From an uncultured Alphaproteobacteria bacterium (GTDB lineage: Bacteria > Pseudomonadota > Alphaproteobacteria > Rhizobiales > Methyloligellaceae), in NCBI GenBank assembly GCA_963745855.1, contig CAVUZR010000021.1, positions 851 to 64,850 of the forward strand: a DNA stretch of 64,000 bases, read 5' to 3'. Shown one piece after another: positions 4,810-56,438 of the stretch (position 1 is the first letter of the stretch; every line of letters starts with the position of its first letter). Both the position numbers and the translations under genes were made by a program. The notes below the pieces were generated by a model. The model did no database searches and had not been told where the DNA came from. It saw only the letters and a program-made list of their open reading frames with translations.

Positions 4810-4850
4810 GTCGTTGCGCGCTCTAGTGGGTCGGGGGAATTGGAAACCGG

Positions 4851-6082: not shown

Positions 6083-6173
6083 CTTGGACTACGGAAGGCA
6101 AATCGTGCCGCAGGCCAAACTGATCGCGGCGAGTAGCTTGCTAGCGAGAGCCGCGTCGCGTACGCGAAGTAAT

Positions 6174-6962: not shown

Positions 6963-7039
6963 ACAGCGCCACGGCTCCCTCTTCGCAGATAAGCGCGTGC
7001 GCACCAATGACACCGGCAAAAGGTTCATTGAGGGTCGGG

Positions 7040-7240
7040 CGGCGAGCCGATCCGCATCCACCGGGGGGTATCCGCGGCACAGAAAACGGAACTCCACCGG
7101 TTATGGACCGTCACCGTGCTTACGGCAAGGCGCCGACCTTCAACACCAATGATTCTGGCACGTTCAAGCGCGCCGTAGACATGACCGACGACGAGTTAGC
7201 CGCGATCGTAGCCAAGGCCAAGCTGTTGCTATTTCGATGA
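7040..7240 (+). pseudogene. DUF5681-like phage-type protein, C-terminal remnant
   Basis: ..RAYGKAPTFNTNDSGTFKRAVDMTDDELAAIV.. parallels ..RAYGKAPTFSTSDTQAFKRAIDMTDDELAAIV.. at 31200-31387. The N-terminal GNPGGRP part is absent. Confidence 0.4.
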
Positions 7241-21993: not shown

Positions 21994-23296
21994 ATTTGCG
22001 CCTTCGACCACAAACCGCACCCGTCTGCCGGGCAATCAAGGGCCCAAGAAGCGCTATAGTGCCAAGGCTGTGCTGGGGCGCGAGCTATATCATGGCATCC
22101 GATGAGTGACGCCACGTTCCTCGACACGCTAAAGGGCGCTGCGCTCATTGTGCCTTCATTGGCTTTCTCACCATCTTCGCCATGTGGGTATCGCTATGGA
22201 ATGATGTGTGGCGCGTGTCGGTCGAGCCGACTAGGGCGAGCATCTACAACGCCCGCCTAGTCCCTCTCACTGCCTATCGCGTTCTTGGTCATGGTGGTGG
22301 ACTCAGGTTGTCGGCTGACATAGGGCGGTCTTGCAGCATAGCGAGGGGATGGCGTGGACACCGATCATCGGGAATCATTGGTGCCGTCGAGATTGCGCGA
22401 GGTGAGTGCAGCACCGGGAATGGACCTGCTCAATCCAAATCTTCCATTCGGAACCGCGTTGGACGCTACCTGAGGTCCACATGGAGTCGAATAACCTCGT
22501 CGCACGCTAACAACATCAAAGAGACAAACCACTGGTAGTCATAAAACTTCCCTCGGTCTCCATCGTATTCCTCTTTCTCGTAGTCCAGTTTTGAGAAATC
22601 AGGATTTGCAAGCTCTGAGTATTGAATGCCATGGAGATGGTAGTCCTTCCAGATTTGTTTTGCTGTAGCCTCGCGTGAGTCGAGGACTGGACCTGCTCAA
22701 TTCCGAACTACAAAGCAAAGAGAGCTGCTATTGTGGTTAGCCACGTGGGTATATCTGGGTACATCCCCGGACATCTTCACCCGGTGGCGTCTTTAGCCGC
22801 AGCCCCTCTTAGTATTATATGCGATACCTTAACAATGGGTACGAGCTTGGGGGGGACAGCTACCGCCAGTCTGCGCCTTCTGTTTAACCAGCTAGGGTGT
22901 ATCTATTAGGGTGTATCATAATGTACCTACGCGTACCCGCTCGGTCGTCTTCGAGATAGTTGCCGGTGAAGCGGCCGGAGAGCGTGAGCTCGACGGCGCG
23001 GAGGTTCATTGTGACGAAGCCTCCACCGCCGCCCTGCGTCATACTCCTCGTTTGCCGAACGCGCCGCTTTCGAGCCCGAGCGCGAAGCGTGGCCCGAGTT
23101 TCAGCCGGCGCAAGACTCCAATATTGCTGAAACGCGGTGGCCGTACGATGCGTCGACCGACAGGAACCGGAGCGGCGAGAGATCAATCCAGCTTGCTGCA
23201 TCTCTCGATTGTGAATCAGGCGAATTACAACAGCCGCATGGCGAGTATTTTTAGAGATTATGCAATCTAAGGTAGACTCCCTTCCTAGTGTGCAGC

Positions 23297-24310
23297 ATGC
23301 ATCCTGAGCGCTTCGAGTCCTGGCTTGCTGTCGATACGCGCGGCCTCTATTGCCGGCCTGGCGGATTCCACATCGACCCGCACAGTCCGGTGAATCGCGC
23401 AGTGATCACGCACGCCCATTCCGATCACGCCCGCGCCGGCCACGATCATGTGCTCGCCACGCGCGAGACGATTGCCCTGATGAAGACGCGGCTTGGCACC
23501 GCGGCCAAGCTCGGGACGCAAACGCTGCCCTATGGCGAGACGCTGCAGGTGGGCGACGTGACGGTGACGCTCGCGCCGGCCGGCCACGTGCTCGGCAGCG
23601 CGCAAATCGTCATCGAATGGAGAGGGCGTCGCGCGGTGGTCTCAGGCGACTACAAGCGAAGCGCCGACCCGACCAATCCTCCCTTCGAGCTCGTGCCTTG
23701 CGATCTGCTTGTCACCGAGGCGACGTTCGCGCTCCCGGTGTTCAGCCATGGCGACGCGCGGGGCGAGATGGCGAAGCTGCTCAAATCGCTGAAGCAGTTT
23801 CCGGAGCGCGCGCATGTGGTCGGCGTGTATGGGCTCGGCAAATGCCAGCGCCTCATCGCGCTGTTGCGCGAGGCGGGGTACGTGGAGCCGATCTATCTGC
23901 ACGGAGCGCTTGCCGCCTGCTGCGAGGTCTATGAAAGCTTCGGGATCGAGCTCGGCGCGCTGAAGCCCGCAACCGGCGCGAAGCGCGAGGAGCTGAAGGG
24001 TGCCATCGTGTTGGCGCCCCCTTCGGCCATCGCCGAGCGATGGTCGCGGCGCATGCCGGATGCGCTCACCGCCTTTGCCTCTGGCTGGATGCGCGTCAGG
24101 GCGCGGGCACGGCAGCGCGGCGTCGAGCTTCCGCTCGTGATCTCCGACCATGCCGATTGGCGCGAGCTGACGCGGACAATTCATGAGACCGGCGCGCATG
24201 AAATATGGGTCACCCATGGGCGCGAGGACGCGCTGCTGCATCACATCCAATCCACAGGGCGCGTCGGCCGGGCGCTCGCGCTCATCGGTCGCGAGGATGA
24301 GGAGTCGTGA
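23297..24310 (+). CDS. ligase-associated DNA damage response exonuclease (metallo-beta-lactamase fold)
   Basis: ..AVITHAHSDHARAG.. motif. Its stop overlaps the ligase start (GTGA at 24307-24310). Confidence 0.75.
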   Translation: MHPERFESWLAVDTRGLYCRPGGFHIDPHSPVNRAVITHAHSDHARAGHDHVLATRETIALMKTRLGTAAKLGTQTLPYGETLQVGDVTVTLAPAGHVLGSAQIVIEWRGRRAVVSGDYKRSADPTNPPFELVPCDLLVTEATFALPVFSHGDARGEMAKLLKSLKQFPERAHVVGVYGLGKCQRLIALLREAGYVEPIYLHGALAACCEVYESFGIELGALKPATGAKREELKGAIVLAPPSAIAERWSRRMPDALTAFASGWMRVRARARQRGVELPLVISDHADWRELTRTIHETGAHEIWVTHGREDALLHHIQSTGRVGRALALIGREDEES

Positions 24311-25890
24311 AAGCGTTTTCCGAATTGCTGGACCGGCTGGCCTACACGCCGTCGCGCAACGACAAACTTCGTTTGCTCGCCGACTATTTTGCCACCACGC
24401 CCGACCCAGACCGCGGCTGGGCGCTTGCCGCCTTGACCGACGGTTTGTTCTTCCGGCTGCCGCTCCGCCGCATCTTGGGCGAGATGATCGAGGCCCGAGT
24501 CGATCCCGTGCTGTTCGGGCTCTCCCGCGACTATGTCGGCGACACCGCTGAGACAATCGCCCTGATCTGGCCTCAAGGCGACGCATCCGAGCAAGCGCCG
24601 CGGCTCGACGAGGTGGTGCAGACGCTGAAGCGCGCCATGCCGACGGAAGTGTCGGGACTGCTTGCCCAATGGCTCGATGGCCTCGACGCCACCGGGCGCT
24701 GGGCACTGCTCAAGCTCGTCACCGGGGCGCTCCGCGTCGGCATCTCGGCCCGGCTTGCCAAGACAGCGCTTGCCGAATGGTCCAAGGTCCCGCTCGCTGA
24801 CATCGAGGAGGTCTGGCACGGACTGCGTCCGCCTTATGTCGAGCTGTTCGCCTGGCTTTCCGGCGGAGGCCAGCGCCCCGAGGTCGGTGGGACGGCGACC
24901 TTCCGCCCGCTGATGCTGTCGCATCAGATCGAGGACCGGGAGCTTGCTTCGATCGCGCCTGAGGATTTCGTGGCGGAATGGAAGTGGGACGGCATCCGCG
25001 TGCAGGCCGCGCATCAAGGCGGCGAGCGGCGCCTCTACTCCCGCACCGGCGACGATATCTCCGGCGCCTTCCCCGATGTGGTCATGGGGCTGCCGCCCGG
25101 TGTGGTACTCGACGGCGAGCTGTTGGTGATGCGCGGCAGCGAGGTTGCGCCGTTCAACGATTTGCAGCAGCGGCTTAACCGCAAGACCGTAACCGCCGGC
25201 ATGCTGAAATCGCATCCGGCCCACATCCGCCTTTACGACATGCTGTTTCAGAGCGATGAGGACCTGCGCCCCCTTCCCTTCGTGGGGCGGCGCGCGCGGC
25301 TCGAAGCCTGGCATGCCAACGCAAGGCCGCCACGCACCGATGTGTCAGCTGTGCTTGACTTCAGCTCGATCGAGGAGCTCGAGCGTCTATGGGCGGGGGC
25401 GCGCGAGACCGGCATCGAAGGATTGATGTTGAAGCGCCGCGACAGCCCCTATCTTGCCGGGCGCCCGAAGGGCCATTGGTACAAATGGAAGCGGGCACCG
25501 CTCACCCTCGACGCCGTGCTGATGTACGCGCAGCGGGGCAGCGGCAAGCGCTCGTCCTATTATTCCGACTACACCTTCGGCGCCTGGCGCGAAGCGGAGA
25601 CCGGAGAGCCAGAGCTTGTTCCGGTGGGCAAATCCTATTTCGGCTTCACCGACGAGGAGCTCCGGCAGCTCGACGCTTTCGTGCGCAATCACACCGTGGA
25701 TAGTTTCGGGCCCGTGCGCCAGGTCGAGCCGAGGCTCGTGTTCGAGGTCGCGTTCGATTCGGTACATCGCTCGAGCCGACACAAATCCGGCGTCGCCATG
25801 CGTTTCCCGCGCATCCATCGTATCCGCTGGGACAAGCCTGCGGAGGAGGCCGATCGGCTTGAGACTCTCGTCGGCATGATCGTGGAGTGA
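24307..25890 (+). CDS. ATP-dependent DNA ligase (cisplatin/damage-response type)
   Basis: Adenylation motif ..AEWKWDGIRVQ.. (KxDG), ..LDGELLV.., ..EGLMLKRRDSPY.., ..KWKR.. 527 aa. Confidence 0.85.
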   Translation: MKAFSELLDRLAYTPSRNDKLRLLADYFATTPDPDRGWALAALTDGLFFRLPLRRILGEMIEARVDPVLFGLSRDYVGDTAETIALIWPQGDASEQAPRLDEVVQTLKRAMPTEVSGLLAQWLDGLDATGRWALLKLVTGALRVGISARLAKTALAEWSKVPLADIEEVWHGLRPPYVELFAWLSGGGQRPEVGGTATFRPLMLSHQIEDRELASIAPEDFVAEWKWDGIRVQAAHQGGERRLYSRTGDDISGAFPDVVMGLPPGVVLDGELLVMRGSEVAPFNDLQQRLNRKTVTAGMLKSHPAHIRLYDMLFQSDEDLRPLPFVGRRARLEAWHANARPPRTDVSAVLDFSSIEELERLWAGARETGIEGLMLKRRDSPYLAGRPKGHWYKWKRAPLTLDAVLMYAQRGSGKRSSYYSDYTFGAWREAETGEPELVPVGKSYFGFTDEELRQLDAFVRNHTVDSFGPVRQVEPRLVFEVAFDSVHRSSRHKSGVAMRFPRIHRIRWDKPAEEADRLETLVGMIVE

Positions 25891-42239: not shown

Positions 42240-43671
42240 TTGATGCGTCGGTATTTGACGGCCCTAGCGTTTGGGCTTGTTTTTGCGTGTGGCGTGGCTC
42301 CGGCCGCTACGGCCGAGGCCGCCACCATCACCGCGGAAGAGGCGCACGCCATAGGCGTCGATGCCTATCTCTATTTCTACTCCCTCGTGACCATGGATGT
42401 GACGCGCAAGCAGCTCACCAATCAGGAGCCGAACTCCTGGGGGCATCGGCGGCCCGATGAACAGCTTCGCCAATGTCGGAGCGTTTCCCTCCGCCGACAT
42501 GAAGGTCGTGGTCAGGCCGAATTTCGACACGCTCTATTCGAGCGGCTGGCTCGACCTGACCAAGGAACCGATGGTCGTCTCCGTGCCTGACACCGGCGGG
42601 CGCTATTATCTCCTGCCCATGCTCGACATGTGGACAGACGTGTTTGCCTCGCCTGGCTGGCGCACCACGGGAACGGAAGCCGGCAACTTTCTGGTGACGC
42701 CCCCAGGCTGGAGCGGCACGGTGCCTGACGGCTTCACTGAGATCAAAGCGCCGACGCCCTATGTGTGGATCATCGGCCGCACCAAGACCGACGGGCCTGC
42801 CGATTACGACAGCGTGCACAAGATCCAGGAGGGCTACAAGATCACGCCGCTGTCGGAGTGGGGCAAGGAGCCGGTAGCGCCGGAGGTTAAGATCGACCCC
42901 TCCATCGATATGAAGACTCCGCCGAAGAAACAAGTCGACACCATGCCTGCCGGGCCGTTCTTCGCCTATGCCGCCGATCTGCTCAAGCTTCATCCGCCGC
43001 ACATCACCGATGAGCCGATCATCGCGCAGCTGAAGCGCATTGGCTTCGAGGTTGGCAAGAGCTTCGATCTGGATAAGGCCGATCCCGCCGTCAAGAAGGG
43101 GCTCGCAAGCGCGCCAGAGGACGCCCAGAAGCTGATGGCGTGGAAAGTTCCAACGCTTGCCAGGATCGCCAACTATTGGTCGATGAACACCGACACCATG
43201 GGCGTCTATGGCAACTACTATCTGAAGCGCGCCATCGTTACCCAGCTCGGCCTTGGTGCCAATCTCCCGGGCGACGCCATCTATCCCCTCAATCTCGCCG
43301 ATGACACGGGAAAGCCTCTCGATGGCGCGAGCAATTACACCCTCCACTTCGACAAGGACCAAATACCGCCGGCGCGGGCCTTCTGGTCGATAACCTTGTA
43401 TGACAATGACGGGTTCCAGGTGGCGAATTCCTTGAACCGCTTCGCCGTGTCGAGCTGGATGCCGTTCCACTACAATCCCGACGGCTCGCTCGACCTCTAT
43501 TTCCAGAATGAGAGTCCCGGCGCCGACAAGGAGGCCAACTGGCTGCCGGCGCCGAAAGGACCATACAATTTGACCATGCGTCTCTACGCGCCGAAATCGG
43601 AGGCGCTAACCGGCAGATGGAACCCGCCGCCGGTCATCAAGGCTCAGGCGCTGCCTGCCGCGGCGCAATGA
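42240..43671 (+). pseudogene. DUF1254/DUF1214 domain protein, frameshift near 42435-42455
   Basis: The signal peptide and ..AIGVDAYLYFYSLVTMDVTRKQLTNQEP.. (42240 frame) continue as ..GGIGGPMNSFANV..RPNFDTLYSSGWLDL.. (42457 frame). The C-terminus is ..NWLPAPKGPYNLTMRLYAPK.. Confidence 0.7.
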
Positions 43672-45570: not shown

Positions 45571-45596
45571 AGTCAAAAAGGAGAACGACGCATGAA

Positions 45597-45782
45597 GCAG
45601 ACGCGGACGGCTCCACGACGATCTACTTCAGCCCGACGCAGCCTGCGGGCGTGAAGCGCGGCAATTGGATTCAGACCATGCCGGGCAAAGGCTGGTTCAC
45701 GATCCTGAGGCTTTATAGCCCGCTCGAACCGTTCTTCGACAAGAGCTGGCGGCCAAGCGAGATCGAGGAGGTGTCGAACTGA
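45597..45782 (+). pseudogene. DUF1214 C-terminal fragment (no start codon)
   Basis: ADADGSTTIYFSPTQPAGVKRGNWIQTMPGKGWFTILRLYSPLEPFFDKSWRPSEIEEV. It parallels the C-terminus of the 42240-43671 protein. Confidence 0.55.
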
Positions 45783-46135
45783 CCGTTCGTCGCTCGACCG
45801 CCGGCAACTCATTTCTTCATGCAGTTGCCAAACAGGGCAAAGGACGACGGGCCGCGGACTAGACAGAAAGACGAGCCCAATTTCGGTCCATGACATCATT
45901 TTTCGATCTTGCTAGAAAGAGGCGGCCAAAGTGGCTACGCAGGTGCGGGGCCTCGCGTGCCTTCCTGATGATCTGCCATATAACTAATTGATATGGTTTG
46001 GTTTATCGGCTGTCAGCGGCCGCATGGAAGCGAGCGACGGGTGATCCGCTACGGGGAAATGTCGGCTCGCTGATGTCATCAAACGAGGCGCTCGATAGTG
46101 CCGGTAGCGAAGCCGGGTCTGCGGCGGGTTAGGCG

Positions 46136-48145
46136 ATGACGCTCGCTGTCGTCCTCGCCATCGCCGCCGCTCTGCTCATTGTCTCGGCGTTGTCGCTTGC
46201 GCTTCTCGGCACGGCGCTTGGCCGCATCCTCGTTTATGGGATCTCGCTGACTCTCGCGGGCATAGGACTCGCCGCCGCCCTCGGCGCGCTGATTGGGCAA
46301 GTTCCTACCGAGACCTTGACTTTGCCGCTGGGCCTTCCCTGGATTGGCGCCCATTTCCGGCTCGACGCGCTCTCGGCATTCTTTCTTGTCGTGGTCAATC
46401 TCGGCGGCGGCGCCGCGAGCCTCTATGCGCTCGGCTTTGGGCGGCATGAGACGGCGCCGCAGCGCGTGCTGCCCTTCTATCCGCTGTTCCTCGCCGGCAT
46501 GACGCTCGTCGTCATCGCCGACGACGCTTTCACCTTCTTGTTCTCCTGGGAGTTCATGTCCCTCTCCTCCTGGGCGCTGGTGATGGCACACGACCATCTG
46601 CGCGAGAATCTGCGCGCTGGATATGTGTATCTGGTGATGGCGAGCTTCGGCACGCTTGCGCTGCTGATCGCCTTCGGACTGCTGGCCGGACCTGACGGCG
46701 CCTACGCATTCGATGCGATCCGCAACAGCCAGGTCGCCCCCGGCCTCGTCCCGCTCGTCCTCATTCTGGTGTTGATCGGCACCGGCTCAAAGGCGGGCCT
46801 CGTGCCGCTGCACGCCTGGCTGCCGCTCGCCCACCCAGCGGCGCCGAGCCATGTCTCCGGGCTATTGAGCGGCGTCATGACCAAGGTCGCCGTCTACGCC
46901 TTCGTGCGCATCGTGTTTGACCTGTTGGGCGATCCGGCCTGGTGGTGGAGCATGGTGGTGCTCGCGCTCGCCGGCATCACCTGCGTCATGGGTGTGCTCT
47001 ACGCGCTGATGCAGCACGATCTGAAGCGGCTGCTCGCCTATCACACGGTCGAGAATATCGGCATCATCTTCATCGGCCTTGGGCTTGCGCTCGGATTTCA
47101 GGCTTACGATCTCGGCTGGGCGGCCGCGCTCGCTTTCACTGCGGCGCTCCTGCACGTGCTCAACCACTCCCTGTTCAAGAACCTCCTGTTCCTCGGCTCA
47201 GGGGCCGTGCTCACCGCCACCGGCGAACGGAACATGGAGCATCTCGGCGGCCTCATTCATCGCATGCCGCTGACGGCCTTCACCTTCCTCGTTGGCTGCG
47301 TCGCCATCTCGGCGCTGCCGCCGCTCAATGGCTTCGTCTCCGAATGGCTGACCTTCCAAGCCATCTTGCAAAGCCCACAGCTCGTCTCATGGGGCCTGAA
47401 ATTTCTGATCCCTGCGGTCGGTGCCCTGCTCGCTCTATCGGCGGCGCTTGCCGCTGCCTGCTTCGTCAAGGCCTTCGGCATCACCTTTCTCGGTCGGCCG
47501 CGCACTGAGGCCGCACGGCGCGCGCATGAAACCGATGCCTTCTCCCTCACCTCGATGTTTGCGCTCGCCACGCTCTGTCTGATCGCCGGCATTCTGCCCG
47601 GCTATTTCATCGACGCGCTCGCGCCGGTCGCCAAATCCATGGTCGGCGAAAGCATGCCGCTGCAACACGGCGTGCCCTTCCTCTCCATCGTCCCGATCGC
47701 CGAGGGCCGTAGCTCCTATAACGGCCTCCTCGTGTTCCTCTTCATGGTGTTCTCTGGTGTCGCCGCGGCAATCGTCATTCATCGATTTGCCTCCGATAGG
47801 ATTCGGCGTGGTCCGGCGTGGGATTGCGGCTATCCGGACCCGAGCACGCAGACCCAATATACCTCCTCAAGCTTCGCCCAGCCCTTCCGCCGAGTGTTCG
47901 GAACGCTAGTGTTTCGCGCGAGTGAGCAGGTCGACATGCCGCCGCCCGGAGATCAAAGACCCGCTCGCCTCGTGGTGCGCCTGACCGACACCATCTGGGA
48001 TGCCCTCTATGAGCCGATCGCGGTTGTCGTCGGCACCATCGCCGACCGGCTGAACCGGCTCCAGTACCTCAGCATCCGCCACTATCTCGGCTTCGTGTTC
48101 GTCTCGCTCGTCGGCCTTCTGCTCGTGCTTGCGATATGGCCATGA
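46136..48145 (+). CDS. hyfB: hydrogenase-4 component B-like antiporter subunit (NuoL/HyfB family)
   Basis: 669-aa polytopic protein with ..FLFSWEFMSLSSWALV.., ..GSKAGLVPLHAWLPLAHPAAPSHVSGLLSG.. Confidence 0.8.
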   Translation: MTLAVVLAIAAALLIVSALSLALLGTALGRILVYGISLTLAGIGLAAALGALIGQVPTETLTLPLGLPWIGAHFRLDALSAFFLVVVNLGGGAASLYALGFGRHETAPQRVLPFYPLFLAGMTLVVIADDAFTFLFSWEFMSLSSWALVMAHDHLRENLRAGYVYLVMASFGTLALLIAFGLLAGPDGAYAFDAIRNSQVAPGLVPLVLILVLIGTGSKAGLVPLHAWLPLAHPAAPSHVSGLLSGVMTKVAVYAFVRIVFDLLGDPAWWWSMVVLALAGITCVMGVLYALMQHDLKRLLAYHTVENIGIIFIGLGLALGFQAYDLGWAAALAFTAALLHVLNHSLFKNLLFLGSGAVLTATGERNMEHLGGLIHRMPLTAFTFLVGCVAISALPPLNGFVSEWLTFQAILQSPQLVSWGLKFLIPAVGALLALSAALAAACFVKAFGITFLGRPRTEAARRAHETDAFSLTSMFALATLCLIAGILPGYFIDALAPVAKSMVGESMPLQHGVPFLSIVPIAEGRSSYNGLLVFLFMVFSGVAAAIVIHRFASDRIRRGPAWDCGYPDPSTQTQYTSSSFAQPFRRVFGTLVFRASEQVDMPPPGDQRPARLVVRLTDTIWDALYEPIAVVVGTIADRLNRLQYLSIRHYLGFVFVSLVGLLLVLAIWP

Positions 48146-49092
48146 TCACCACGCTCGCGGTGCAGGCCGCACAGATGCTGCTGGTGTTGGGGCTCGCGCC
48201 GCTCCTCGTCGGTTTCGTGCGCAAGGTCAAGGCCCGGTTGCTTCGCCGCCAAGGTCCGCCGCTCATTCAGCCTTACCGCGACCTCATCCGGCTCCTGCGC
48301 AAGGACGTGGTACTGGCGACAAGTGCCTCCTGGCTGTTCCGCGCCATCCCCTATCTCATCTTCGCCGCGACCTGGGTGGCGGCGGCGCTGGTGCCGACCT
48401 TCGCCACCGGGCTGATGTTCTCCTGGTCGGCCGATCTGATCGTCATCATCGCGCTGCTTGGGCTCGCCCGCTTTTTCCTGGCGCTTGCCGGCCTCGATGT
48501 GGGCACGAGCTTTGGCGGCATCGGCTCAAGCCGCGAGGTGATGATCGCCTCGCTCGCCGAGCCGGCGATGCTGATGATCGTGTTCACGCTGGCGCTCACC
48601 GCCGGCTCGACCCAGCTCTCCACGATGGCAGAGTACCTTGCCTCGGGAGAAGCCGGTTTGCGTTTCTCGCTCGGGCTTGCGCTGATCGCGCTGATCATCG
48701 TGGCCATCGCCGAGAACGCACGCATCCCGGTCGACAATCCGGCGACGCACCTTGAGCTGACCATGGTGCATGAGGCCATGGTGCTCGAATATTCGGGGCG
48801 GCACCTGGCTCTGATCGACCTGTCGGCTGAGCTCAAGCTTTTGCTCTATGTGTCGCTGATCGCCTGCCTATTCATGCCCTGGGGCATCGCCGCACCTGAT
48901 GCCGGACTCGAGGCGCTGCTCATCGGCGTCATCGCCTATATCGCCAAGCTCGCTGCCGGCGGCTTCCTGCTGGCGGTGTTCGAAACCTCAATCGCCAAGA
49001 TGCGCGTGTTTCGCGTGCCTGAATTCCTGGGCGTGGCGCTCATGCTCGCGCTTCTCGCCACCCTGCTTCTGTTCGTGTCGCGGAGCCTCTAG
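48136..49092 (+). CDS. hyfC: HyfC/HycD-like (NuoH family) membrane subunit
   Basis: ..VRKVKARLLRRQGPPLIQPYRDLIRLLRK.. and ..PATHLELTMVHEAMVLEYSG.. are typical. Confidence 0.8.
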   Translation: MAMITTLAVQAAQMLLVLGLAPLLVGFVRKVKARLLRRQGPPLIQPYRDLIRLLRKDVVLATSASWLFRAIPYLIFAATWVAAALVPTFATGLMFSWSADLIVIIALLGLARFFLALAGLDVGTSFGGIGSSREVMIASLAEPAMLMIVFTLALTAGSTQLSTMAEYLASGEAGLRFSLGLALIALIIVAIAENARIPVDNPATHLELTMVHEAMVLEYSGRHLALIDLSAELKLLLYVSLIACLFMPWGIAAPDAGLEALLIGVIAYIAKLAAGGFLLAVFETSIAKMRVFRVPEFLGVALMLALLATLLLFVSRSL

Positions 49093-49755
49093 ATGCACGG
49101 CCTCAATTTCGATATCGCGCATCTCCTCGCCGGCTCACTCGTGCTGGTGAGCTTCATGCTGCTCTATCAGGACCGGCTCTATGCGCTGCTCAATGTCTAT
49201 GCGCTCCACGCCGTCGTGCTGGCGCTGTCGGTCGCCTGGCAGGCTTACATCCAAGACGCGCCGCATCTCTACATCACCGCGGCGATCGCGCTTCTATTCA
49301 AGGCGATCGTCATCCCCGTGGCGCTACACCGGATGATTGTCAAGCTCGGCATCCATCGCGAGATCGAGGCCGTCGGCGGCATCGGCCTCACCATGCTGCT
49401 CGGCATGGGGCTTGTGGCGCTCGCCATGGTGGTGACGCTGCGCGCGACCGAAGGCGCGGGCCTGCTCGCCCGTGAGGACCTCGCCTTTGCGCTGTCTGTG
49501 GTGCTGCTCGGCCTCCTGATGATGGTGGCGCGGCGAAATGCCGTCAGTCAGGTCGTCGGCTTTATGTCGCTCGAGAACGGGCTGGTGCTCGCCGCCACCG
49601 GCGCCAAGGGTATGCCGCTCGTGGTCGAGATCAGCGTCGCCTTCTCGATCCTCATCGCCTTCATCGTCATCGGCATCTTCCTGTTCCGCATCCGCGAGCG
49701 TTTCGACACGGTCGATGTCGCGGCGCTGGACCGCTATCGGGGTGAGCACGGATGA
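49093..49755 (+). CDS. hyfE: hydrogenase-4 component E-like membrane subunit
   Basis: 220-aa hydrophobic protein with ..GFMSLENGLVLAA.. (NuoK-like core). Confidence 0.7.
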   Translation: MHGLNFDIAHLLAGSLVLVSFMLLYQDRLYALLNVYALHAVVLALSVAWQAYIQDAPHLYITAAIALLFKAIVIPVALHRMIVKLGIHREIEAVGGIGLTMLLGMGLVALAMVVTLRATEGAGLLAREDLAFALSVVLLGLLMMVARRNAVSQVVGFMSLENGLVLAATGAKGMPLVVEISVAFSILIAFIVIGIFLFRIRERFDTVDVAALDRYRGEHG

Positions 49756-51194
49756 GCTTCGATACCGTGACCTTGCTCTTCCTCATCCCGGCGCTGGCGG
49801 CGGTGGTGATCGCGCTAATGCCTGGCTCGAAGCTCAGCGCCTATGTCAACGCCGGCGCGTCCTTCCTCACCTTCCTTGCCGCGTTATCGCTGCTGTGGGT
49901 CGATCGCCCTGCCCCCGGCGCCTATGTGCTGGTCGATGAGTTCAACACCATCTTCGTGGTGCTCATTACCTTTGTTGCCTTCACCACCAGCGTGTTCAGC
50001 GCGACGTATGTCGAGTATGAGCTTGAGGCCGGGCGGGTGACCCCGGCCTTCCTCAAGCTCTACCACGCGCTCTATCAGGCGCTCACGCTCTGCTTCAATC
50101 TCGCGCTACTTAGTAACAATATCGGCGTGATGTGGGTGGCGATCGAGCTTGCCACGCTCACCACCGTGGTCATGGTCGGCATCTACCGCACCCACGCAGC
50201 GATTGAGGCCGCGTGGAAATATTTCATTCTGGCGAGCGTCGGCATCGCCCTCGCTTTGTTCGGCACCATCCTCGTCTATATGGCGGCAGAGCCGGTGATG
50301 GGCGCCGGGCTCAATGCCATGGTGTGGACCAACCTCGTTGCCAATGCGGCGAAGTTGGAACCGGCGATGCTCAATCTTGCCTTCGTGTTCCTGCTGCTCG
50401 GCTACGGCACGAAGATCGGTCTCTTCCCACTGCATGCCTGGCTCCCCGACGCCCATGCCGAAGGTCCGACGCCGATCACCGCCGTGCTATCCGGGCTGCT
50501 GCTCAACGTCGCGCTCTACGCGCTGCTCCGTTGCAAGATGCTGCTCGCCGGCAATCCGGAGGCCTTGGCGCCAGGGCCGCTGATGATCGGCATGGGGCTC
50601 GTTTCCCTGCTGTTCGGCGCCTTCATGCTCTATCGCCGGCGCGACATCAAACGCCTGTTTGCCTATTCCTCCATCGAGCATATGGGCCTGATCACTTTCG
50701 CTTTTGGGCTTGGCGGTCCGATTGCCAATTTCGCCGGACTGTTGCACATGGCGCTGCACTCGCTGACCAAGTCGGCGATCTTCTTCGCCGTCGGCGACAT
50801 CTCGCAGGTCAAGGGCACGCAGAAGATCGCCGACATGGGCGGGCTCACCTCGACCAATCCGCTGATCGGCTGGGGTCTCGTGATTGGCGTCGCAGCCATC
50901 GCAGGCCTGCCTCCGCTCGGCATCTTCACCAGTGAATTTCTGGTGGTCAGTACCACCTTGGCAAAGGCGCCGCTGCTGGCGCTTCCTCTCGTGCTTGGAC
51001 TGCTCGTCGCCATCGGCGCGCTGTTCCTGCAACTGAACCGCATCGCATTCGGCGAGCCTAAGGGTGCGAACCACAAGGTGAAATGCTCCTATGTCCCAAT
51101 GATCCTCCATCTCGGGCTCGTGCTCTGCGCAGGCGTTTATCTGCCCGCATCCCTTGTCGCCTGGTTTCAGGCCGTGGCGAAGCTCCTCGGATAG
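49752..51194 (+). CDS. hyfF: hydrogenase-4 component F-like antiporter subunit (NuoM/N family)
   Basis: ..GYGTKIGLFPLHAWLPDAHAEGPTPITAVLSG.. 480 aa. Confidence 0.8.
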   Translation: MSFDTVTLLFLIPALAAVVIALMPGSKLSAYVNAGASFLTFLAALSLLWVDRPAPGAYVLVDEFNTIFVVLITFVAFTTSVFSATYVEYELEAGRVTPAFLKLYHALYQALTLCFNLALLSNNIGVMWVAIELATLTTVVMVGIYRTHAAIEAAWKYFILASVGIALALFGTILVYMAAEPVMGAGLNAMVWTNLVANAAKLEPAMLNLAFVFLLLGYGTKIGLFPLHAWLPDAHAEGPTPITAVLSGLLLNVALYALLRCKMLLAGNPEALAPGPLMIGMGLVSLLFGAFMLYRRRDIKRLFAYSSIEHMGLITFAFGLGGPIANFAGLLHMALHSLTKSAIFFAVGDISQVKGTQKIADMGGLTSTNPLIGWGLVIGVAAIAGLPPLGIFTSEFLVVSTTLAKAPLLALPLVLGLLVAIGALFLQLNRIAFGEPKGANHKVKCSYVPMILHLGLVLCAGVYLPASLVAWFQAVAKLLG

Positions 51195-51202
51195 GCAAAG
51201 CA

Positions 51203-52717
51203 ATGACCTCGCTCACCGACATCGCCAAGAGCGGCCGGAAGGCGGCAAGCCACCGTCCCTGGCCGCGCGCCATTGTCGGCAGCGACGGCTGGCGGCGCAC
51301 GATCCAAGAACTTGTCGAGGGGCGTGCCACGTTGCTCGGCCTCTGGGGCGACAAGGACGCAGTGCATGTTGCGCTACTCGAGGAGCCGTCAGGCGCGATC
51401 GCTGTTTTTACCCTTGAATGCCCCGACGGCAAATTCCCTTCCGTCGGCGCGCATCACCCACCGGCAATTAGGCTCGAACGCACCATCTCAGATCTCTACG
51501 GCCTGAAACCTGTCGGCGCCTCCGACAGGCGACATTGGCTCGATCTTGGCTTCTGGGGTGTGACCCGTCCGCTCGGCAAACCCAAGAAGCGAGCAATTGA
51601 AGCCTATCCGTACAATTTTCTGCCAGTGGAAGGCGAAGACCTGCATCAGATTCCGGTCGGGCCGGTCCATGCTGGCATTATCGAGCCCGGGCATTTCCGC
51701 TTTACCGCGAATGGCGAGACCGTGGTGCGGCTCGAGCAGCGGCTCGGTTACGTGCACAAGGGCACAGAGTCGCTGATGACCGGGGTGAGCCTCGACAAGG
51801 GAGCGAAACTTGCCGGGCGCACCTCCGGCGACAGCACCGTCGCTTATTCTCTCGCGTTCGCGCAGGCGGTCGAGTCGGCGGTGCAGATCGAGGTTCCGGA
51901 ACGCGCAATCTGGCTACGCGCCCTGATGGCCGAGCTTGAGCGCCTCGCCAACCATTTCGGGGACATCGGCGCCATCTGCAATGATGCGTCGTTCTCTCTC
52001 GCTTTCGCCCAATGCGGCATCCTGCGCGAGCATACCTTGCGCGCGGCGCAAGGCTGCTTCGGCCACCGGTTGATGATGGACCGCATCGTGCCAGGCGGCG
52101 TGACCGACGATCTCTCGGAGAGCCGCATCAAAAATCTTCGCGCCTTGCTTGCCATCGTGCGGCGCCTTTTCCCCGAGGTCGTCGAGATCTACGACAACAC
52201 CGCCTCGCTGCAGGACCGCACCGTCACCACCGGCTACCTCGCGCCGACCCTGGCGCGCGCCTTCGCTGCCGGCGGCTATATCGGCCGCGCTTCTGGCCGT
52301 GCCTTCGACGCGCGGAAAGCTGTGGCTTATGCGCCTTATGACGAGCTCGAATTCGAGGCGCCGGTCCGCGACGACGGCGATGTCAACGCGCGCGTATGGA
52401 TCCGCATCCGTGAGGTCGAGCAGAGTCTGCGGCTGATCGATCAGATCCTCGAACGCCTGCCCAAAGGCCCCATTCACACCGACCGCGCCAAGTCGGGCGG
52501 CGTCAGGGAGGGTCTCGCGCTGGTTGAGGCATTCCGCGGCGACGTGCTCATCGCCGTGCGCATCGGCGAGGATGGCCTGATCGAGCGCTGCCATATGCGC
52601 GATGCGTCCTGGTTCCAATGGCCGCTGCTCGAAGTCGTGATCGAAGGCAACATCGTCGCCGATTTCCCGCTATGCAACAAATCGTTCAACTGCTCCTATT
52701 CGGGCCACGACCTCTAG
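51203..52717 (+). CDS. NuoC-NuoD/HycE-like 'large subunit' lacking the NiFe-ligand cysteines
   Basis: The fold is recognisable (..IPVGPVHAGIIEPGHFRF..RLGYVHKG..). At the L1 position it reads RTSGDSTVAYS instead of RxCGxCxxxH, and the C-terminus is ..FNCSYSGHDL instead of DPCxxCxxR. There is no CxxC anywhere in the protein. Confidence 0.8.
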   Translation: MTSLTDIAKSGRKAASHRPWPRAIVGSDGWRRTIQELVEGRATLLGLWGDKDAVHVALLEEPSGAIAVFTLECPDGKFPSVGAHHPPAIRLERTISDLYGLKPVGASDRRHWLDLGFWGVTRPLGKPKKRAIEAYPYNFLPVEGEDLHQIPVGPVHAGIIEPGHFRFTANGETVVRLEQRLGYVHKGTESLMTGVSLDKGAKLAGRTSGDSTVAYSLAFAQAVESAVQIEVPERAIWLRALMAELERLANHFGDIGAICNDASFSLAFAQCGILREHTLRAAQGCFGHRLMMDRIVPGGVTDDLSESRIKNLRALLAIVRRLFPEVVEIYDNTASLQDRTVTTGYLAPTLARAFAAGGYIGRASGRAFDARKAVAYAPYDELEFEAPVRDDGDVNARVWIRIREVEQSLRLIDQILERLPKGPIHTDRAKSGGVREGLALVEAFRGDVLIAVRIGEDGLIERCHMRDASWFQWPLLEVVIEGNIVADFPLCNKSFNCSYSGHDL

Positions 52718-52726
52718 GAGGCAAGC

Positions 52727-53548
52727 ATGCGACGGCTTCTCTTCAAGAATGTAGCGCGCGGGCGCCTGACGGAGCCACCACCAGCGCCCGACGAAGCTGC
52801 CCTGGCGGAGTTGGCGGCAAATCTCGGCCGTGTGGCGCGGAAGAAGCTTGGCCGCAGCCTGGCCATCCGCGAGGTCGATGCCGGGTCCTGCAATGCCTGC
52901 GAACTCGAGATCCATGCGCTGAACAACGCCTTCTACGATCTCGAGCGCTTCGGCCTGCGCTTCGTCGCCTCGCCGCGCCATGCCGACGTGCTGCTGGTGA
53001 CCGGCCCGGTCACCAAGAACATGCGCGAGGCGCTGGAGCGCACCTATGCCGCGACGCCAGATCCAAAATGGGTGGTGGCGGTCGGCAGTTGCGCAGCGGA
53101 TGGCGGCATTTTCGCCGGGAGCTATGCGGTGGAAGGCGGCGTGTCGCGGGTCGTCCCCGTGGATTTGCACATAAGCGGTTGCCCGCCGACACCCGAGGCC
53201 CTTCTCAGGGGGCTCTTGCGCTCATCGCCGGCGCCTAAGCGGGAAGGCTTGCACGATCGAGAGTGCACAGCAGCAATTGGGTTCGTTTTGCAAAATCCCC
53301 TCGCCCAGGCGTTTACAACTATTAGTTGTTTATATCCTCAATGCTCGTTTTTCTCGGCCCATTCCCTGAAAGAACAAATGTGGAACACCATATATCTGGG
53401 GCCAATTAGGCCACTAAAGGGGGAAATCGAACCATGGCATCAGAAAAGCAGATCGACGCAAATAGGGCCAACGCGAAGAACAGCACCGGCCCGAGGAGCT
53501 TGGCGGGACAGGCACGCTCGCGCCTTAACTCACGGAAGCACGGACTGA
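52727..53548 (+). CDS. NuoB/HycG-like small subunit (FeS cysteines present); 3' end reads into the adjacent phage-like DNA
   Basis: ..DAGSCNACELE.., ..VAVGSCAADGG.., ..ISGCPPTPEAL.. The ORF then continues about 100 codons into AT-richer sequence before its stop. Confidence 0.7.
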   Translation: MRRLLFKNVARGRLTEPPPAPDEAALAELAANLGRVARKKLGRSLAIREVDAGSCNACELEIHALNNAFYDLERFGLRFVASPRHADVLLVTGPVTKNMREALERTYAATPDPKWVVAVGSCAADGGIFAGSYAVEGGVSRVVPVDLHISGCPPTPEALLRGLLRSSPAPKREGLHDRECTAAIGFVLQNPLAQAFTTISCLYPQCSFFSAHSLKEQMWNTIYLGPIRPLKGEIEPWHQKSRSTQIGPTRRTAPARGAWRDRHARALTHGSTD

Positions 53549-54016
53549 CGGCAAAGATGCTCATCATTGTCGGTGAGAACGCCGATGATTTTGATCAGCT
53601 GCGGGTGGAACTCATGGATGAGCATAATCCGCAGTCAGTCCTGGAGTGCGAACTGGTGGAGCGCCTGACGGGGATCCTTTGGCGGCTCCGTCGTGTGCCG
53701 CTCTTCGAGGCCGCGATGCTCGATGCAGCAGGTGTGGAATCAAAAAAATTATGGCTGCCTGCCTGAACCTGAAGGCCAGGAACATAAGCAGGAATTAGAT
53801 GAAGAGGAAGCCGACTGGGAAACGTCGGTTGACTTAGGCCTCGCTTTAATGGATGGGCGTTATGGCGACGCCCACGGCAAGATCGTGCGTCACGAGACTT
53901 CGCTGATGAATGCGTTAGCGAAGACGCTGCAGACGCTCCGTCTCCTTCAGCACGATCGCAATAATAAAGACGACACCGCGAAGCTCAAGATTATTTCCCT
54001 TCCCCCTGCAGCCTGA
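53434..54016 (+). pseudogene. conserved mobile-element hypothetical protein, frameshift at an A7 run near 53742
   Basis: MASEKQIDANRANAKNSTGPRS..RKHGLTA..ECELVERLTGILWRLRRVPLFEAAML.. continues in the next frame as ..ADWETSVDLGLALMDGRYGDAHGKIVRHETSLMNALAKTLQTLRLLQ.. Confidence 0.55.
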
Positions 54017-54082
54017 CTCTAGCGGGACGGAACGCATTTGTTCTCGCCCTGCTGATTCTTCGGACGCAAACGAGGGTTAAAA

Positions 54083-54376
54083 ATGGACCTGAAAAATAAA
54101 ACAGTGACACGTCTGAAGGCAGGCGGTTGGAAGAAGCGAGGGCCAAACAAATTACTATATGCAGGTGAAGTAGACTCCCGCCCGCTCCCACTCGACTACA
54201 TGCTCAGCGTGATGCGCGATCCGATCGCTAGCGCCGAGCTGCGCTTCGCGATGGCCTTGAGGGCGGCGCCCTACTGCCACCCCCGGTACAAGAGTGTTCA
54301 GCCGCCGCCGCGCAAGACCGAGATTCCAGAAAAAATCGAGATGGTCATCATCGATCCTCGTGATGCATACTGGTAG
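54083..54376 (+). CDS. small phage-type protein (hypothetical)
   Basis: ..PLPLDYMLSVMRDPIASAELRFAMALRAAPYCHPRYK.. resembles small ORFs found next to phage terminase or DUF5681 genes. Confidence 0.45.
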   Translation: MDLKNKTVTRLKAGGWKKRGPNKLLYAGEVDSRPLPLDYMLSVMRDPIASAELRFAMALRAAPYCHPRYKSVQPPPRKTEIPEKIEMVIIDPRDAYW

Positions 54377-54547
54377 CAATTCGCCACCTGTTAGTACCCC
54401 GAGCGATGAGCACGGGTAGAGCTCAGCGGTGCCCGTAAGCTCCGAGCTAAGGCCGCCCATTTTCCCGACTGCTTAACTCGGGCAACCGGGACATATCTGG
54501 GCATCCTGTGGCGGGTTTCAAAGTGCCGGTCACTTTGACCATTCGTT

Positions 54548-54790
54548 CTAGTCGTCAGCCCTGCTCTCTCTTAGTCGAATGCCCGGTCCCGTCGCACTGT
54601 CTCCCGGGATAAAAATGATTCCGGCCGCTTCTAGCGCCAATTGAATTTGCTTGAGTGTGGTGACGTTCGTGCCCATTCCGTTTTCAAATCTGCTCACGGT
54701 GTTCGCCGCAACACCTGCGCGTTTTGCCAGATCACGAACTCCCCAGCCAAGAGCCGCCCTTGCCATTCGCACTTGCGAACGGGTGATCAT
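54548..54790 (-). CDS. XRE-family repressor-like HTH protein
   Basis: MITRSQVRMARAALGWGVRDLAKRAGVAANTVSRFENGMG.. It is divergent from the Gp157/Rad52 genes. Confidence 0.7.
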   Translation of the reverse strand: MITRSQVRMARAALGWGVRDLAKRAGVAANTVSRFENGMGTNVTTLKQIQLALEAAGIIFIPGDSATGPGIRLRESRADD

Positions 54791-54818
54791 AAGGTTAGGC
54801 TTCTGTCGCCGAAAATAG

Positions 54819-54846
54819 TTGCGTTGTCGCAATTTTCGGGTATACT
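54819..54846 (+). promoter_or_regulatory. rightward promoter (TTGCGT-16 nt-TATACT) overlapping operator palindrome TTGCG-TTGT-CGCAA
   Basis: Hexamers at 54819-54824 and 54841-54846, palindrome at 54819-54832. It lies between the divergent XRE and Gp157-like genes. Confidence 0.5.
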
Positions 54847-54877
54847 AGCCACAATTCTAATTGATTTGGTTAGTCGC

Positions 54878-55384
54878 ATGAGCGCCCTGCTCCTGAAAAA
54901 CGAGCTCCAGCTTTACAACCGGCTTCATGAACGGCTGCTCGAACAACTCCCTGACATTGACGACGAAACAATTCGGGACACGCTCGAGGGAATCACCGAT
55001 CTCCACGAGATGATAGCTGCGGTGATCCGCTCAGCGCTAGTGGATGAAGCGCTTCATGCAGGGCTTCGCTTTCGGCTCGATGACATGAAAGAACGGCTCT
55101 CGCGGCTCGAGTTAAGGGCCAACAAGAAGCGCGAGCTCGCTCTCGAGGCAATGACTGAGGTTGGGCTTACCAAGCTCGAGCAGCCGGACCTCACCGCCTC
55201 AGCGCGAACGGGTTCTCCCGCTCTCGTGGTCATCGCTGAGGATAGGATCCCCGAAGCCTACTGGCTGCCGCAGCCGCCGAAGCTCGATCGCCACGCGGTC
55301 CTCACAGAGCTCAAGCGGGGCATAGAGATTCCCGGCGCGCAAATGAGCAACCTCAAACCAGTGCTTAGCGTGAGGACAAAGTGA
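54878..55384 (+). CDS. siphovirus Gp157-like protein
   Basis: MSALLLKNELQLYNRLHERLLEQLPDIDDETIRDTLEGITDLHEMIAAV.., ..IPEAYWLPQPPKLDR.. It sits directly upstream of the annealase. Confidence 0.55.
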   Translation: MSALLLKNELQLYNRLHERLLEQLPDIDDETIRDTLEGITDLHEMIAAVIRSALVDEALHAGLRFRLDDMKERLSRLELRANKKRELALEAMTEVGLTKLEQPDLTASARTGSPALVVIAEDRIPEAYWLPQPPKLDRHAVLTELKRGIEIPGAQMSNLKPVLSVRTK

Positions 55385-56199
55385 TGGCGCTTAGCGATAC
55401 CCAAGTTCGCCAATTGAAAGCGAAACTCGAGGGCAAGCACGTCAAAACATGCAAGGCCAACGGTGCCGATCTTCACTATGTCGAAGGATGGCATGTCATC
55501 GCCGAAGCCAACCGCATTTTTGGATATGACGCCTGGGATCGGAGGACGCTTGCCAGCCACTGCGTGTGGAGCGGCACCTCAGGCGCCTACCACGGCGCAG
55601 CTTACTCGGCCAAGGTCCGCGTCAGCGTCCGGGCAGGAGATATCACCATTGTGCGGGAGGGATCGGGGACAGGGGAAGGCAAGGCCCCTACCCCGGGACA
55701 AGCTCACGAGCTTGCCCTTAAGGGTGCCGAGACCGATGCCACCAAGCGTGCGCTTGCCACCTTCGGTAATCCCTTCGGTCTTGCCCTTTATGACCGCGAG
55801 CAGCTTGGCGTCCGCAAAGCCAAAGAAGCGAAGGCTTCGCCGCCGATCGGCCCTTGGATCTTACGCTTGGCTTCTGGTGAGGAAGGAGCAAGCTTCGACA
55901 AGCCAAGCGAGTTCGCAGAGACCCTACGCAAGGCAATGACTGAAGCTCGCGATGTCGAGCTCTTGTTCGCCATCTGGGAGCAGAACGTCGAAACAGTGAG
56001 AGCTGTGAACCGAAGCCTGAAGCAAGAATCACTGCCGAGATCTGGGATTGCGCCTCAGCTGGTAAATCATCTCAAGCAATGCGCCATCGGTTTGGTTAAG
56101 CCCGAGAGCCGAGCTAATGGGTCAGGCGATCCACTACCGAGGACGGCGCGTCCCAAGATCGACAAGAGCGTTCTAACCTTGGGTGAGCCGAAGAATTAA
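55381..56199 (+). CDS. Rad52/22-family single-strand annealing protein
   Basis: ..DLHYVEGWHVIAEANRIFGYDAWDRRT..GSGTGEG..AHELALKGAETDATKRALATFGNPFGLALYD.. Confidence 0.7.
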   Translation: MMALSDTQVRQLKAKLEGKHVKTCKANGADLHYVEGWHVIAEANRIFGYDAWDRRTLASHCVWSGTSGAYHGAAYSAKVRVSVRAGDITIVREGSGTGEGKAPTPGQAHELALKGAETDATKRALATFGNPFGLALYDREQLGVRKAKEAKASPPIGPWILRLASGEEGASFDKPSEFAETLRKAMTEARDVELLFAIWEQNVETVRAVNRSLKQESLPRSGIAPQLVNHLKQCAIGLVKPESRANGSGDPLPRTARPKIDKSVLTLGEPKN

Positions 56200-56438
56200 T
56201 TCAAAAAGGCGCCGAAATCCGACCAATCAGGGATGTGGCAAATGCCACAGCGCCGCTTCGAACAGGGCCCTATCATTATGATTATCGTTGGTCTTGGGGC
56301 TCGAAGCCGCCTCAAATCGAGGAGCTTGACCCAGTTCATTGAAGGATGTTCGCTATGATGCGCATTCTGGCTACACGCATCGAGGAAGGCACCAGCTTCG
56401 CGTCTCCTGCACATGGCTGGCGTCCTAGGTGGCGGCGA

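Follow-up and report, generated by a model that had tools for sequence, protein, structure and literature searches.

A hyq-like operon encoding a hydrogenase-type membrane complex devoid of NiFe ligands in an uncultured alphaproteobacterium

We describe a cassette of six + strand genes, at positions 46136-53548 of a 64-kb window of DNA (the whole stretch that was analysed, 64,000 nucleotides from contig CAVUZR010000021.1) from an uncultured Methyloceanibacter-like alphaproteobacterium, that specifies a membrane complex resembling Hyf and complex I and whose hydrogenase-type large subunit has none of the four cysteines that would coordinate a NiFe center. By its gene order, its diagnostic residues and its identity to a rhizobial counterpart, the cluster is an ortholog of the alphaproteobacterial hyq operon (hyqBCEFGI), within the energy-converting hydrogenase-related (Ehr) class. 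The loss of the ligands in this family is itself not new, as the loss of both CxxC motifs was published in 2012. Here we examine how deep this loss runs, what has been retained around the former metal site, and what the complex might do.

Results

Loss of the NiFe ligands from the large subunit

The large subunit HyqG (hyqG/ehrL, 51203..52717, + strand, 504 aa) matches the Complex1_49kDa family, and HMMER comparisons with solved structures rank E. coli HycE first (7z0s_E, E=4.8e-62), before MbhL and Nqo4, with MbsL at 8e-23. An AlphaFold2 model of HyqG (pLDDT 93.9) gave the same top match in Foldseek (7z0s_E, TM 0.92/0.87), with E. coli NuoCD next (TM 0.82-0.89). Since HycE is the best match in both sequence and structure, we take HyqG to be a NuoC-NuoD fusion with the hydrogenase large-subunit fold.

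In the alignment to HycE, the L1 stretch of HyqG, R206-T-S-G-D-S-T-V-A-Y-S, lies against R-V-C-G-I-C-G-F-A-H-S and does not conform to RxCGxCxxxH; at the C-terminus (F-N-C-S-Y-S-G-H-D-L), 'KSFNCSYSG' lies against 'GSLDPCYSC' and does not conform to DPCxxCxxR/H. The alignment thus places the four ligand positions at S208, S211, S498 and G501, a change from C,C,C,C to S,S,S,G. C497 falls one residue off register, and most members of the ligand-less clade described below have Leu there. HyqG contains seven Cys in total and no CxxC, so that a large subunit without NiFe ligands or CxxC, as the original prediction had read it from the letters alone, is confirmed by alignment. HyqG also has no counterpart of the residues that bind the quinone headgroup in complex I, His38 and Tyr87 (T. 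thermophilus Nqo4 numbering): when aligned by HMMER to 2fug_4, I160, the latter of the two Ile in the loop A-G-I-I-E-P-G-H, lies under His38 and Gly209 lies under Tyr87.

We compared the cassette with 80 species-level loci, mostly from Hyphomicrobiales metagenome-assembled genomes (MAGs) and including Bradyrhizobium sp. ARR65, one Casimicrobiaceae MAG and one Competibacteraceae MAG. The six genes are syntenic across these 80 loci (hyqB is scored as syntenic in 77/80), and in comparison with the closest relative every one of them has a ratio dN/dS of nonsynonymous to synonymous substitution rates of 0.04-0.10 (0.09 for hyqG against locus L001), indicating strong purifying selection. CxxC occurs in 0/80 HyqG orthologs; S208, G209, D210, S211, S498 and G501 are essentially invariant; and three cysteines are likewise retained (C259 in 80/80, C491 in 79/79, C497 in 78/79). 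Because all 80 orthologs carry the same substitutions and the six genes are under purifying selection, the ligand loss is real, and on these comparisons both sequencing error and pseudogenization of the structural genes are excluded as its cause. Apart from the general possibility, and from a single indel error that may exist elsewhere in the cluster (see below), nothing favors reading the absent cysteines as an error of sequencing or assembly in an ordinary group 4 [NiFe] hydrogenase. Four independent codons are changed, and the same residues are found in 80/80 orthologs, in 68 distant representatives and in published HyqG sequences, which refutes this idea and leaves it with practically no probability. 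Absence of the Ni-ligand cysteines from all 80 orthologs, together with the absence of any hyp or HycF-like gene beside orthologous clusters (see below), leaves the original prediction standing on the two points that it had named as decisive.

A ligand-less clade beside group 4 hydrogenases

A HMMER search of 1.84 billion representatives gave 1116 matches at E <= 1e-30, and at least 579 Hyq/Ehr loci were confirmed in species-representative genomes. The near-full-length top matches comprised 68 ligand-less proteins and 9 Cys-complete hydrogenases, where the ligand-less representatives (at most 50% identity) were selected as having no Cys at ligand positions 2-4 and Asp or Glu at position 210. 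Within this set, ligand position 1 is Ser in 52/68 and Ala in 8/68, with Cys retained in 7/68, and the fourth ligand position is Gly in 65/68. Residue 210, which lies between the two former L1 cysteines and was by selection Asp or Glu, is Asp in 65/68, as opposed to Val or Ala in the nearest hydrogenases. The three cysteines conserved among the close orthologs are much less common across the clade (C259 in 21/68, C491 in 27/68, C497 in 9/68).

Nearly all residues that are invariant in the nearest true hydrogenases are kept in the 68 ligand-less representatives, among them E161 in the loop, R239, E244, E246, R247, H251, R289, D369, R371, D393, R397, R445, W473 and D503. The family-specific invariants of HyqG are D210 and G501 only, both of which lie at the former metal site. 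In a neighbor-joining tree, calculated without bootstrap and without named Ehr references, the 68 ligand-less proteins form one clade, with the HyqG of the window nested deep inside it (and ~33-45% identical to most of its members); the sister group of this clade is formed by the 9 Cys-complete hydrogenases, and HycE and MbhL branch further out.

The small subunit and its 3' end

The NuoB-like small subunit HyqI (hyqI/ehrS, 52727..53238, + strand; PF01058 (Oxidored_q6), NF005012) contains exactly four Cys (55, 58, 122 and 152), predicting one [4Fe-4S] site, and these are invariant in 80/80 orthologs, in keeping with the retention of four FeS cysteines that had been proposed from the sequence of the window. 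The 3' end that had been assigned to the gene, 53548, has to be revised. A DNA alignment with L081, L001, L018 and L005 shows a one-base deletion in hyqI between 53214 and 53215, adjoining a G5 run, so that the open reading frame (ORF) as assembled reads on to 53548 (273 aa) with a 103-aa unrelated tail; the native end is ...GLLALIAGA* with the TAA at 53236-53238, giving 170 aa, and relatives encode ~170 aa. The deletion lies ten codons upstream of the native stop and downstream of the last Cys ligand, and L081, a contig that is 99.3% identical through hyqG/I, has an intact 170-aa hyqI. The frameshift may therefore be a homopolymer assembly error.

We note that the small subunit of the nearest Cys-complete hydrogenase (P0213; L088, 2434-3258) is a 274-aa protein with a faint Fer4_7 match fused to the NuoB domain, and that Hyq/Ehr small subunits, at ~170-180 aa, are without the Fer4_7 part. 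This difference could mark where an electron-input domain was lost.

A decayed regulator gene upstream of hyqB

Directly upstream of hyqB, in at least 50 of 71 related loci, lies an intact gene of 80-84 aa for an XRE/HTH_3 protein, and an HTH gene occupies the same position on pRL11 of R. johnstonii and on R. rhizogenes and Bradyrhizobium plasmids. In the window this seventh cassette gene, hyqR, which encodes an XRE-type HTH regulator, survives as a frameshifted and truncated remnant at approximately 45995..46132 (+ strand), from which 'RMEASDG*' (46021-46044) and, in the next frame, 'LRGNVGSLMSSNEALDSAG...' can still be read. The same decay is common to the closest relatives L001, L018, L002, L004, L006 and L010. 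The conserved block upstream of 46136 had at first been taken for a hairpin or leader peptide, and proved to be this coding remnant.

Decay of this kind raises the possibility that the window copy is being lost, with the operon silent or the complex defective: hyqR is a frameshifted remnant, hyqI lacks a base and acquires its unrelated tail of 103 aa, and a phage-derived segment abuts the 3' end of the operon. Yet the six structural genes are full length and evolve at the low dN/dS given above, the decay of hyqR is common to several related species that keep intact structural genes, and the hyqI frameshift falls after the last Cys ligand, beside the G5 run, in a region for which the 99.3%-identical contig is intact. 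We consider it distinctly improbable that the window copy is on its way out.

Operon layout and membrane subunits

The six ORFs, whose families were assigned by Pfam and NCBIfam profile scans, are packed as tightly as the original prediction had held them to be. The hyqB and hyqC genes overlap by 10 nt (48136-48145), the stop of hyqC at 49092 abuts the start of hyqE at 49093, hyqE and hyqF overlap by 4 nt (49752-49755), and spacers of 8 nt and 9 nt precede hyqG (51203) and hyqI (52727), respectively. Matches to sigma-70 promoters and terminators across the operon were no more numerous than in shuffled sequence and were set aside, and an Rfam search of the window returned a tRNA-His only.

Alongside the two peripheral subunits, HyqG and HyqI, the cassette encodes four membrane subunits, two of them antiporter-like, one NuoH/HycD-like and one HyfE-like. 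HyqB (hyqB/ehrA, 46136..48145, + strand, 669 aa) is a NuoL/HyfB-like antiporter-like subunit that matches PF00361 and scores 862 bits against NF005086, 'hydrogenase 4 subunit B' (cut-off 667), with the NuoL model covering residues 15-666. HyqC (hyqC/ehrB, 48136..49092, + strand, 318 aa; PF00146) is the NuoH/HycD-like membrane subunit that joins the peripheral arm; its closest solved relative is E. coli HycD (7z0s_D, 5.4e-42), followed by MbhM, with ND1 of complex I reaching just ~1e-11, and it keeps the acidic loop residues of HycD. HyqE (hyqE/ehrC, 49093..49755, + strand, 220 aa) is a small HyfE-like subunit with a NuoK-like C-terminal half, matching NF008556 at E=5.8e-24 (under its cut-off) and, weakly, PF00420 over residues 132-212; it is 76-95% identical in nearly all relatives, the outliers L006, L070 and L076 being at 46-71%. 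HyqF (hyqF/ehrD, 49752..51194, + strand, 480 aa) is a NuoM/N/HyfF-like antiporter-like subunit that scores 806 bits against NF005043, 'hydrogenase 4 subunit F' (cut-off 533). When HyqF is aligned to MbsH and E. coli NuoM, the Glu of transmembrane helix (TM) 5, the Lys of TM7 and the Glu of TM12 are seen to be retained. The central TM8 Lys (K265 of E. coli NuoM) is Asn in HyqF.

Partners, regulation and genomic context

No ferredoxin-like, formate dehydrogenase or hyp gene had been noticed in the window on first inspection, and systematic searches bear this out: among 36 window ORFs scanned with Pfam there was no Hyp, Fdh, Nif or Fer4 family and no second hydrogenase, a six-frame scan of the 64-kb window for the ferredoxin motif CxxCxxCxxxC[PAG] found none, and no nuo-like genes beyond the six are present in the window. 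When the 1436 ORFs of the 80 loci were clustered by BLAST, no family outside the cassette reached more than 17 loci, the commonest being generic transporters and dehydrogenases, and the ferredoxin motif was present in 2 of the 1436 ORFs, neither of them adjacent to the cassette. In a Pfam census of 126 flanking ORFs of related loci, the top families were DAO, MFS and FUR, each with 6/126 at most, and Hyp, endopeptidase and HycF-like genes were absent; nor was a hyp or HycF-like neighbor found in the 80 loci or on three plasmids. Near distant ligand-less representatives, where we also looked for partners, most contigs are short, and the one long contig (L085) showed the six genes only.

Control by FNR/FixK and by sigma-54/NifA was considered and rejected. 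FNR/FixK boxes (TTGA-N6-TCAA) upstream of the first gene or hyqR occur in 1-2 of 53-71 loci and not in the window. In scans that used consensus patterns only, over 300-700 nt upstream, sigma-54-like sequences likewise turned up in 1-2 of 53-71 loci and NifA boxes in no more than two, which is chance level for this clade, and the window has none. The cassette is, as far as these patterns can tell, not tied to nif in this clade. Given that no partner or promoter motif is enriched, we infer that the cassette is self-contained, consisting of the regulator and the six structural genes; it occurs in many genomic contexts.

The cassette is also found on rhizobial plasmids, several of which are typed as conjugative. 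On two Rhizobium plasmids (L082, 11074-12114; L089, 11083-12096) the small-subunit gene is followed, after 12 nt and in the same orientation, by a DUF4365 gene that neither the window nor the Hyphomicrobiales MAG loci possess.

Neighboring genes

Directly 3' of the operon is the variable, phage-derived segment mentioned above (53240-56234), in which we find an XRE repressor-like gene (54569-54790, - strand) whose product is 41% identical to HyqR, a Gam-like/Gp157 gene (54641-55384) and a gene for a Rad52-like recombinase (55381-56199). L081 carries another set there (2297-7149), with a ParB-N6/N4 methyltransferase and DUF5681. A search for att-like direct or inverted repeats around 53240-56234 gave short chance-level matches only. 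On the 5' side, a short ORF (45593-45782, + strand), with a product ending '...NWIQTMPGKGWFTILRLYSPLEPFF...', looks by eye like an orphan C-terminal fragment of the DUF1214 type, and a full DUF1254/DUF1214 gene is located at 42457-43671. At 23288-25890, and unrelated to the operon, a metallo-beta-lactamase-fold gene is translationally coupled to a gene for an ATP-dependent DNA ligase (LigA_N/M/C).

Discussion

We suggest that the Hyq/Ehr complex is a redox-coupled ion-translocating module and not a canonical [NiFe] hydrogenase, a proposal that we hold to have a somewhat better than even chance of being right. A redox role is indicated by the invariance of the four FeS cysteines in 80/80 orthologs, by the retention of the hydrogenase scaffold and by the new invariant D210; an ion-translocating role is indicated by the retention in HyqF of the TM5 Glu, TM7 Lys and TM12 Glu and in HyqC of the acidic loop residues of HycD; and a NiFe enzyme is argued against by the fact that no ortholog has a CxxC and that no Hyp or HycF-like neighbor was found. 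In such a module, electrons would pass through the single [4Fe-4S] cluster of HyqI. A partner would dock on the surface of HyqI and HyqG that is left free by the missing NuoI/HycF, with a soluble low-potential carrier (ferredoxin or flavodoxin) being the most plausible, and the acceptor would sit in a pocket at the HyqG/HyqI/HyqC interface, where a membrane quinone, bound unlike that of complex I, seems the most plausible. The reaction would be reversibly coupled to proton or cation translocation via HyqC, HyqE, HyqF and HyqB. Any specific donor-acceptor pair is much less likely than redox-coupled translocation in general. We note that deletion of hyq in Azorhizobium caulinodans is reported to slow diazotrophic growth by 21%, even at saturating H2 (PMC2650096), a deficit that some other role would explain no less well than H2 recycling does.

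Several points weigh against this proposal. In the 80 loci the cassette has no gene for a ferredoxin or flavodoxin linked to it. The junction subunit is of the hydrogenase type and the complex I quinone ligands are absent, so that a quinone site would be hypothetical. The genetics of A. caulinodans has been read as hyq-dependent H2 uptake and evolution (PMC3357923), a reading that our proposal would have to recast. Finally, the decayed hyqR and the frameshift in hyqI leave normal expression and assembly of the window copy in doubt; its structural genes are otherwise intact.

It is possible, if unlikely, that the NiFe-less pocket beside the cluster, with its new D210 and its retained E161, has become a new catalytic or coupling site, one that supports either the transfer of electrons from quinol to ferredoxin or flavodoxin driven by the proton-motive force or an H2 chemistry without a Cys-ligated NiFe center. 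If this were true, the reverse version driven by the proton-motive force would explain the nif-linked phenotype in Azorhizobium without hydrogenase chemistry.

The published view, for which the evidence is solely of a genetic and physiological nature, is a different one, as the deletion genetics in A. caulinodans has been read as evidence of an H2:quinone 'endo-hydrogenase' (PMC2650096, PMC3357923). The original prediction, in calling the substrate and partner unknown, was fair biochemically but overlooked this published, and contested, claim for hyq. A genuine endo-hydrogenase would require a non-canonical site, for example one made of Cys259, Cys491 and Cys497 near the former NiFe pocket, and for it one can cite the genetics, which connects hyq with the recycling of H2 and, below 1 uM O2, with H2 evolution (PMC2650096, PMC3357923), the retention of the hydrogenase scaffold and the loop Glu, the (near-)invariance of C259, C491 and C497 in the 80 orthologs, and the fact that the closest solved structure to HyqG is a real hydrogenase subunit. 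However, the four ligands are replaced in 80/80 orthologs and their loss is near-universal in the 68-member clade (at positions 2-4 by selection, with Cys kept at position 1 in 7/68), and the Cys triad is not kept across that clade, which argues against its being a general catalytic site. The genes for Hyp proteins, endopeptidase and a HycF-like subunit do not accompany the cassette, and Ehr-bearing M. tuberculosis is reported to be without NiFe maturation genes (PMC6728331). Even to those who described hyq, a NiFe site is 'uncertain, if not unlikely' (Ng 2009; Sprecher 2012), and saturating H2 does not rescue the growth defect (PMC2650096). We regard a genuine endo-hydrogenase as rather unlikely.

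At the other extreme, the complex could be a redox-independent, Mrp-like cation/proton antiporter, for which HyqG and HyqI provide a structural or regulatory (e.g. redox-sensing) cap. There are two antiporter-like subunits with their charged residues intact (the TM5 Glu, TM7 Lys and TM12 Glu having been shown for HyqF only), the cassette has no conserved electron-input partner beside it, and neither the NiFe ligands nor the quinone ligands of complex I are present. The invariance of the FeS cysteines in 80/80 orthologs speaks against a redox-independent role, and the conservation of the scaffold deep in the clade, together with the new Asp in the pocket, represents more constraint than a passive cap needs; a plain antiporter thus strikes us as improbable.

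Complexes of the Hyq/Ehr family are widespread and stand, in evolutionary terms, where hydrogenases and complex I meet. The window adds no new type, and does not alone make the function of the family more tractable. The comparative results do sharpen the question, however, by pointing to a self-contained cassette with no linked electron-input protein, whose large subunit has an Asp and a Gly, both located where the metal was once bound, as its only family-specific invariants. There is also a consequence for annotation: database names that we met for HyqG-type proteins include 'Ni,Fe-hydrogenase III large subunit', 'hydrogenase expression protein HypE' and 'NADH-quinone oxidoreductase subunit C', and such genes ought not to be counted as hydrogenases in metabolic reconstructions.

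Comparison with known systems

The closest described system is the hyqRBCEFGI operon of A. caulinodans (AZC_4360-4355), which encodes six structural proteins and a regulator (Ng 2009; Sprecher 2012; PMC2650096, PMC3357923); neither this description nor hyqR had been taken into account in the original prediction. A review (PMC4758237) has also pointed to 'hyq' of alphaproteobacterial diazotrophs. The window shares with A. caulinodans the structural order B-C-E-F-G-I, and in both the equivalents of HyfA, HyfD and HyfH are absent. HyqG of A. caulinodans is a NuoC::NuoD fusion of 504 residues (PMC2650096, PMC3357923), the length found here, and all HyqG orthologs are reported to be without both CxxC motifs and to conserve Cys-258/491/497 (Sprecher 2012, PMC3357923), which compare with Cys 259/491/497 in the window. 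For HyqI, Cys-55/58/112/152 are given (PMC2650096, PMC3357923), and the window has 55/58/122/152 for this four-Cys site (55, 58, ..., 152). The differences are the remnant state of hyqR and the apparent frameshift in hyqI, together with regulation and host: the A. caulinodans operon belongs to the nif regulon and has a NifA box and a sigma-54 promoter (Ng 2009; Sprecher 2012), whereas the window has no NifA box, sigma-54 promoter or nif gene and its Methyloceanibacter-like host is not a documented diazotrophic microaerophile.

The case for orthology to Hyq is built on R. johnstonii 3841 and the residue numbers in print, A. caulinodans itself having been compared by description. The HyqG of the window is 64.5% identical, over its full length, to the large subunit encoded on pRL11 of R. 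johnstonii 3841, where the gene order is HTH regulator, hyfB, nuoH-like, hyfE, hyfF, a 504-aa 'NuoC' and nuoB-like. R. johnstonii 3841 is the type genome of R. leguminosarum bv. viciae and is hence presumably the organism meant by that name. R. leguminosarum bv. viciae is listed as hyq+ (PMC3357923). The matching order, residues and identity to R. johnstonii are therefore what leads us to assign the window cluster to the known operon family.

Ehr complexes are reportedly defined, in a usage that is said to go back to Coppi in 2005 and Marreiros et al. in 2013, by a clustering of NuoB-, NuoD-, NuoH- and antiporter-like genes and by the loss of the NiFe cysteines. In the window these genes form one cluster, the large subunit is ligand-less, and it groups beside group 4 hydrogenases and not with NuoD, so that the resemblance to Ehr that had been suggested from the letters is upheld by the placement of the ligand-less clade in the unbootstrapped tree. 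Published accounts describe the Ehr class as group-4-like complexes without Ni/Fe-coordinating residues and of undetermined function (PMC6349859, PMC10284858, PMC7894505, PMC6728331). The Ehr clusters of Geobacter sulfurreducens (GSU0739-0745) and M. tuberculosis (Rv0082-Rv0087), compared here by description, likewise combine NuoL/M-, NuoH- and HyfE-like subunits with EhrL and EhrS and are without the NiFe cysteines, but they form a different subfamily, and the Geobacter cluster has seven genes with EhrA duplicated.

With E. coli formate hydrogenlyase and hydrogenase 4 (Hyc, Hyf; 7Z0S) the window complex shares its best matches HycE and HycD, the HyfB and HyfF models and the CxxC-type motif of the small subunit. 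Unlike these enzymes, it is without the NiFe ligands, a HycF/HyfH (NuoI-like) subunit, the HycB/HyfA ferredoxin, FdhF, a third antiporter-like subunit, the C-terminal extension for endopeptidase processing and nearby hyp genes. It thus has two features of group 4 [NiFe] hydrogenases, the large-subunit fold and a small subunit with the proximal four-Cys [4Fe-4S] site, and the window lacks a third, the NuoI/HycF/EchF-like subunit with 2x[4Fe-4S].

Respiratory complex I shares with the window complex its module architecture, its fold, the N2-type cluster site and charged antiporter-like subunits. The window has six genes in place of the at least 11 core subunits (11-14 in all, including NuoI, NuoA, NuoJ/K and NuoN) expected of complex I, with no NADH module and no NuoI, and its junction subunit is nearer to HycD than to ND1. 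The MBX and MBS complexes of Pyrococcus are far larger and only distantly related to the window complex, and have a NuoI-like ferredoxin subunit. As NiFe-less descendants of membrane-bound hydrogenase, they nevertheless set a precedent for a complex of group 4 origin that is an active ion-translocating oxidoreductase and works on another substrate.

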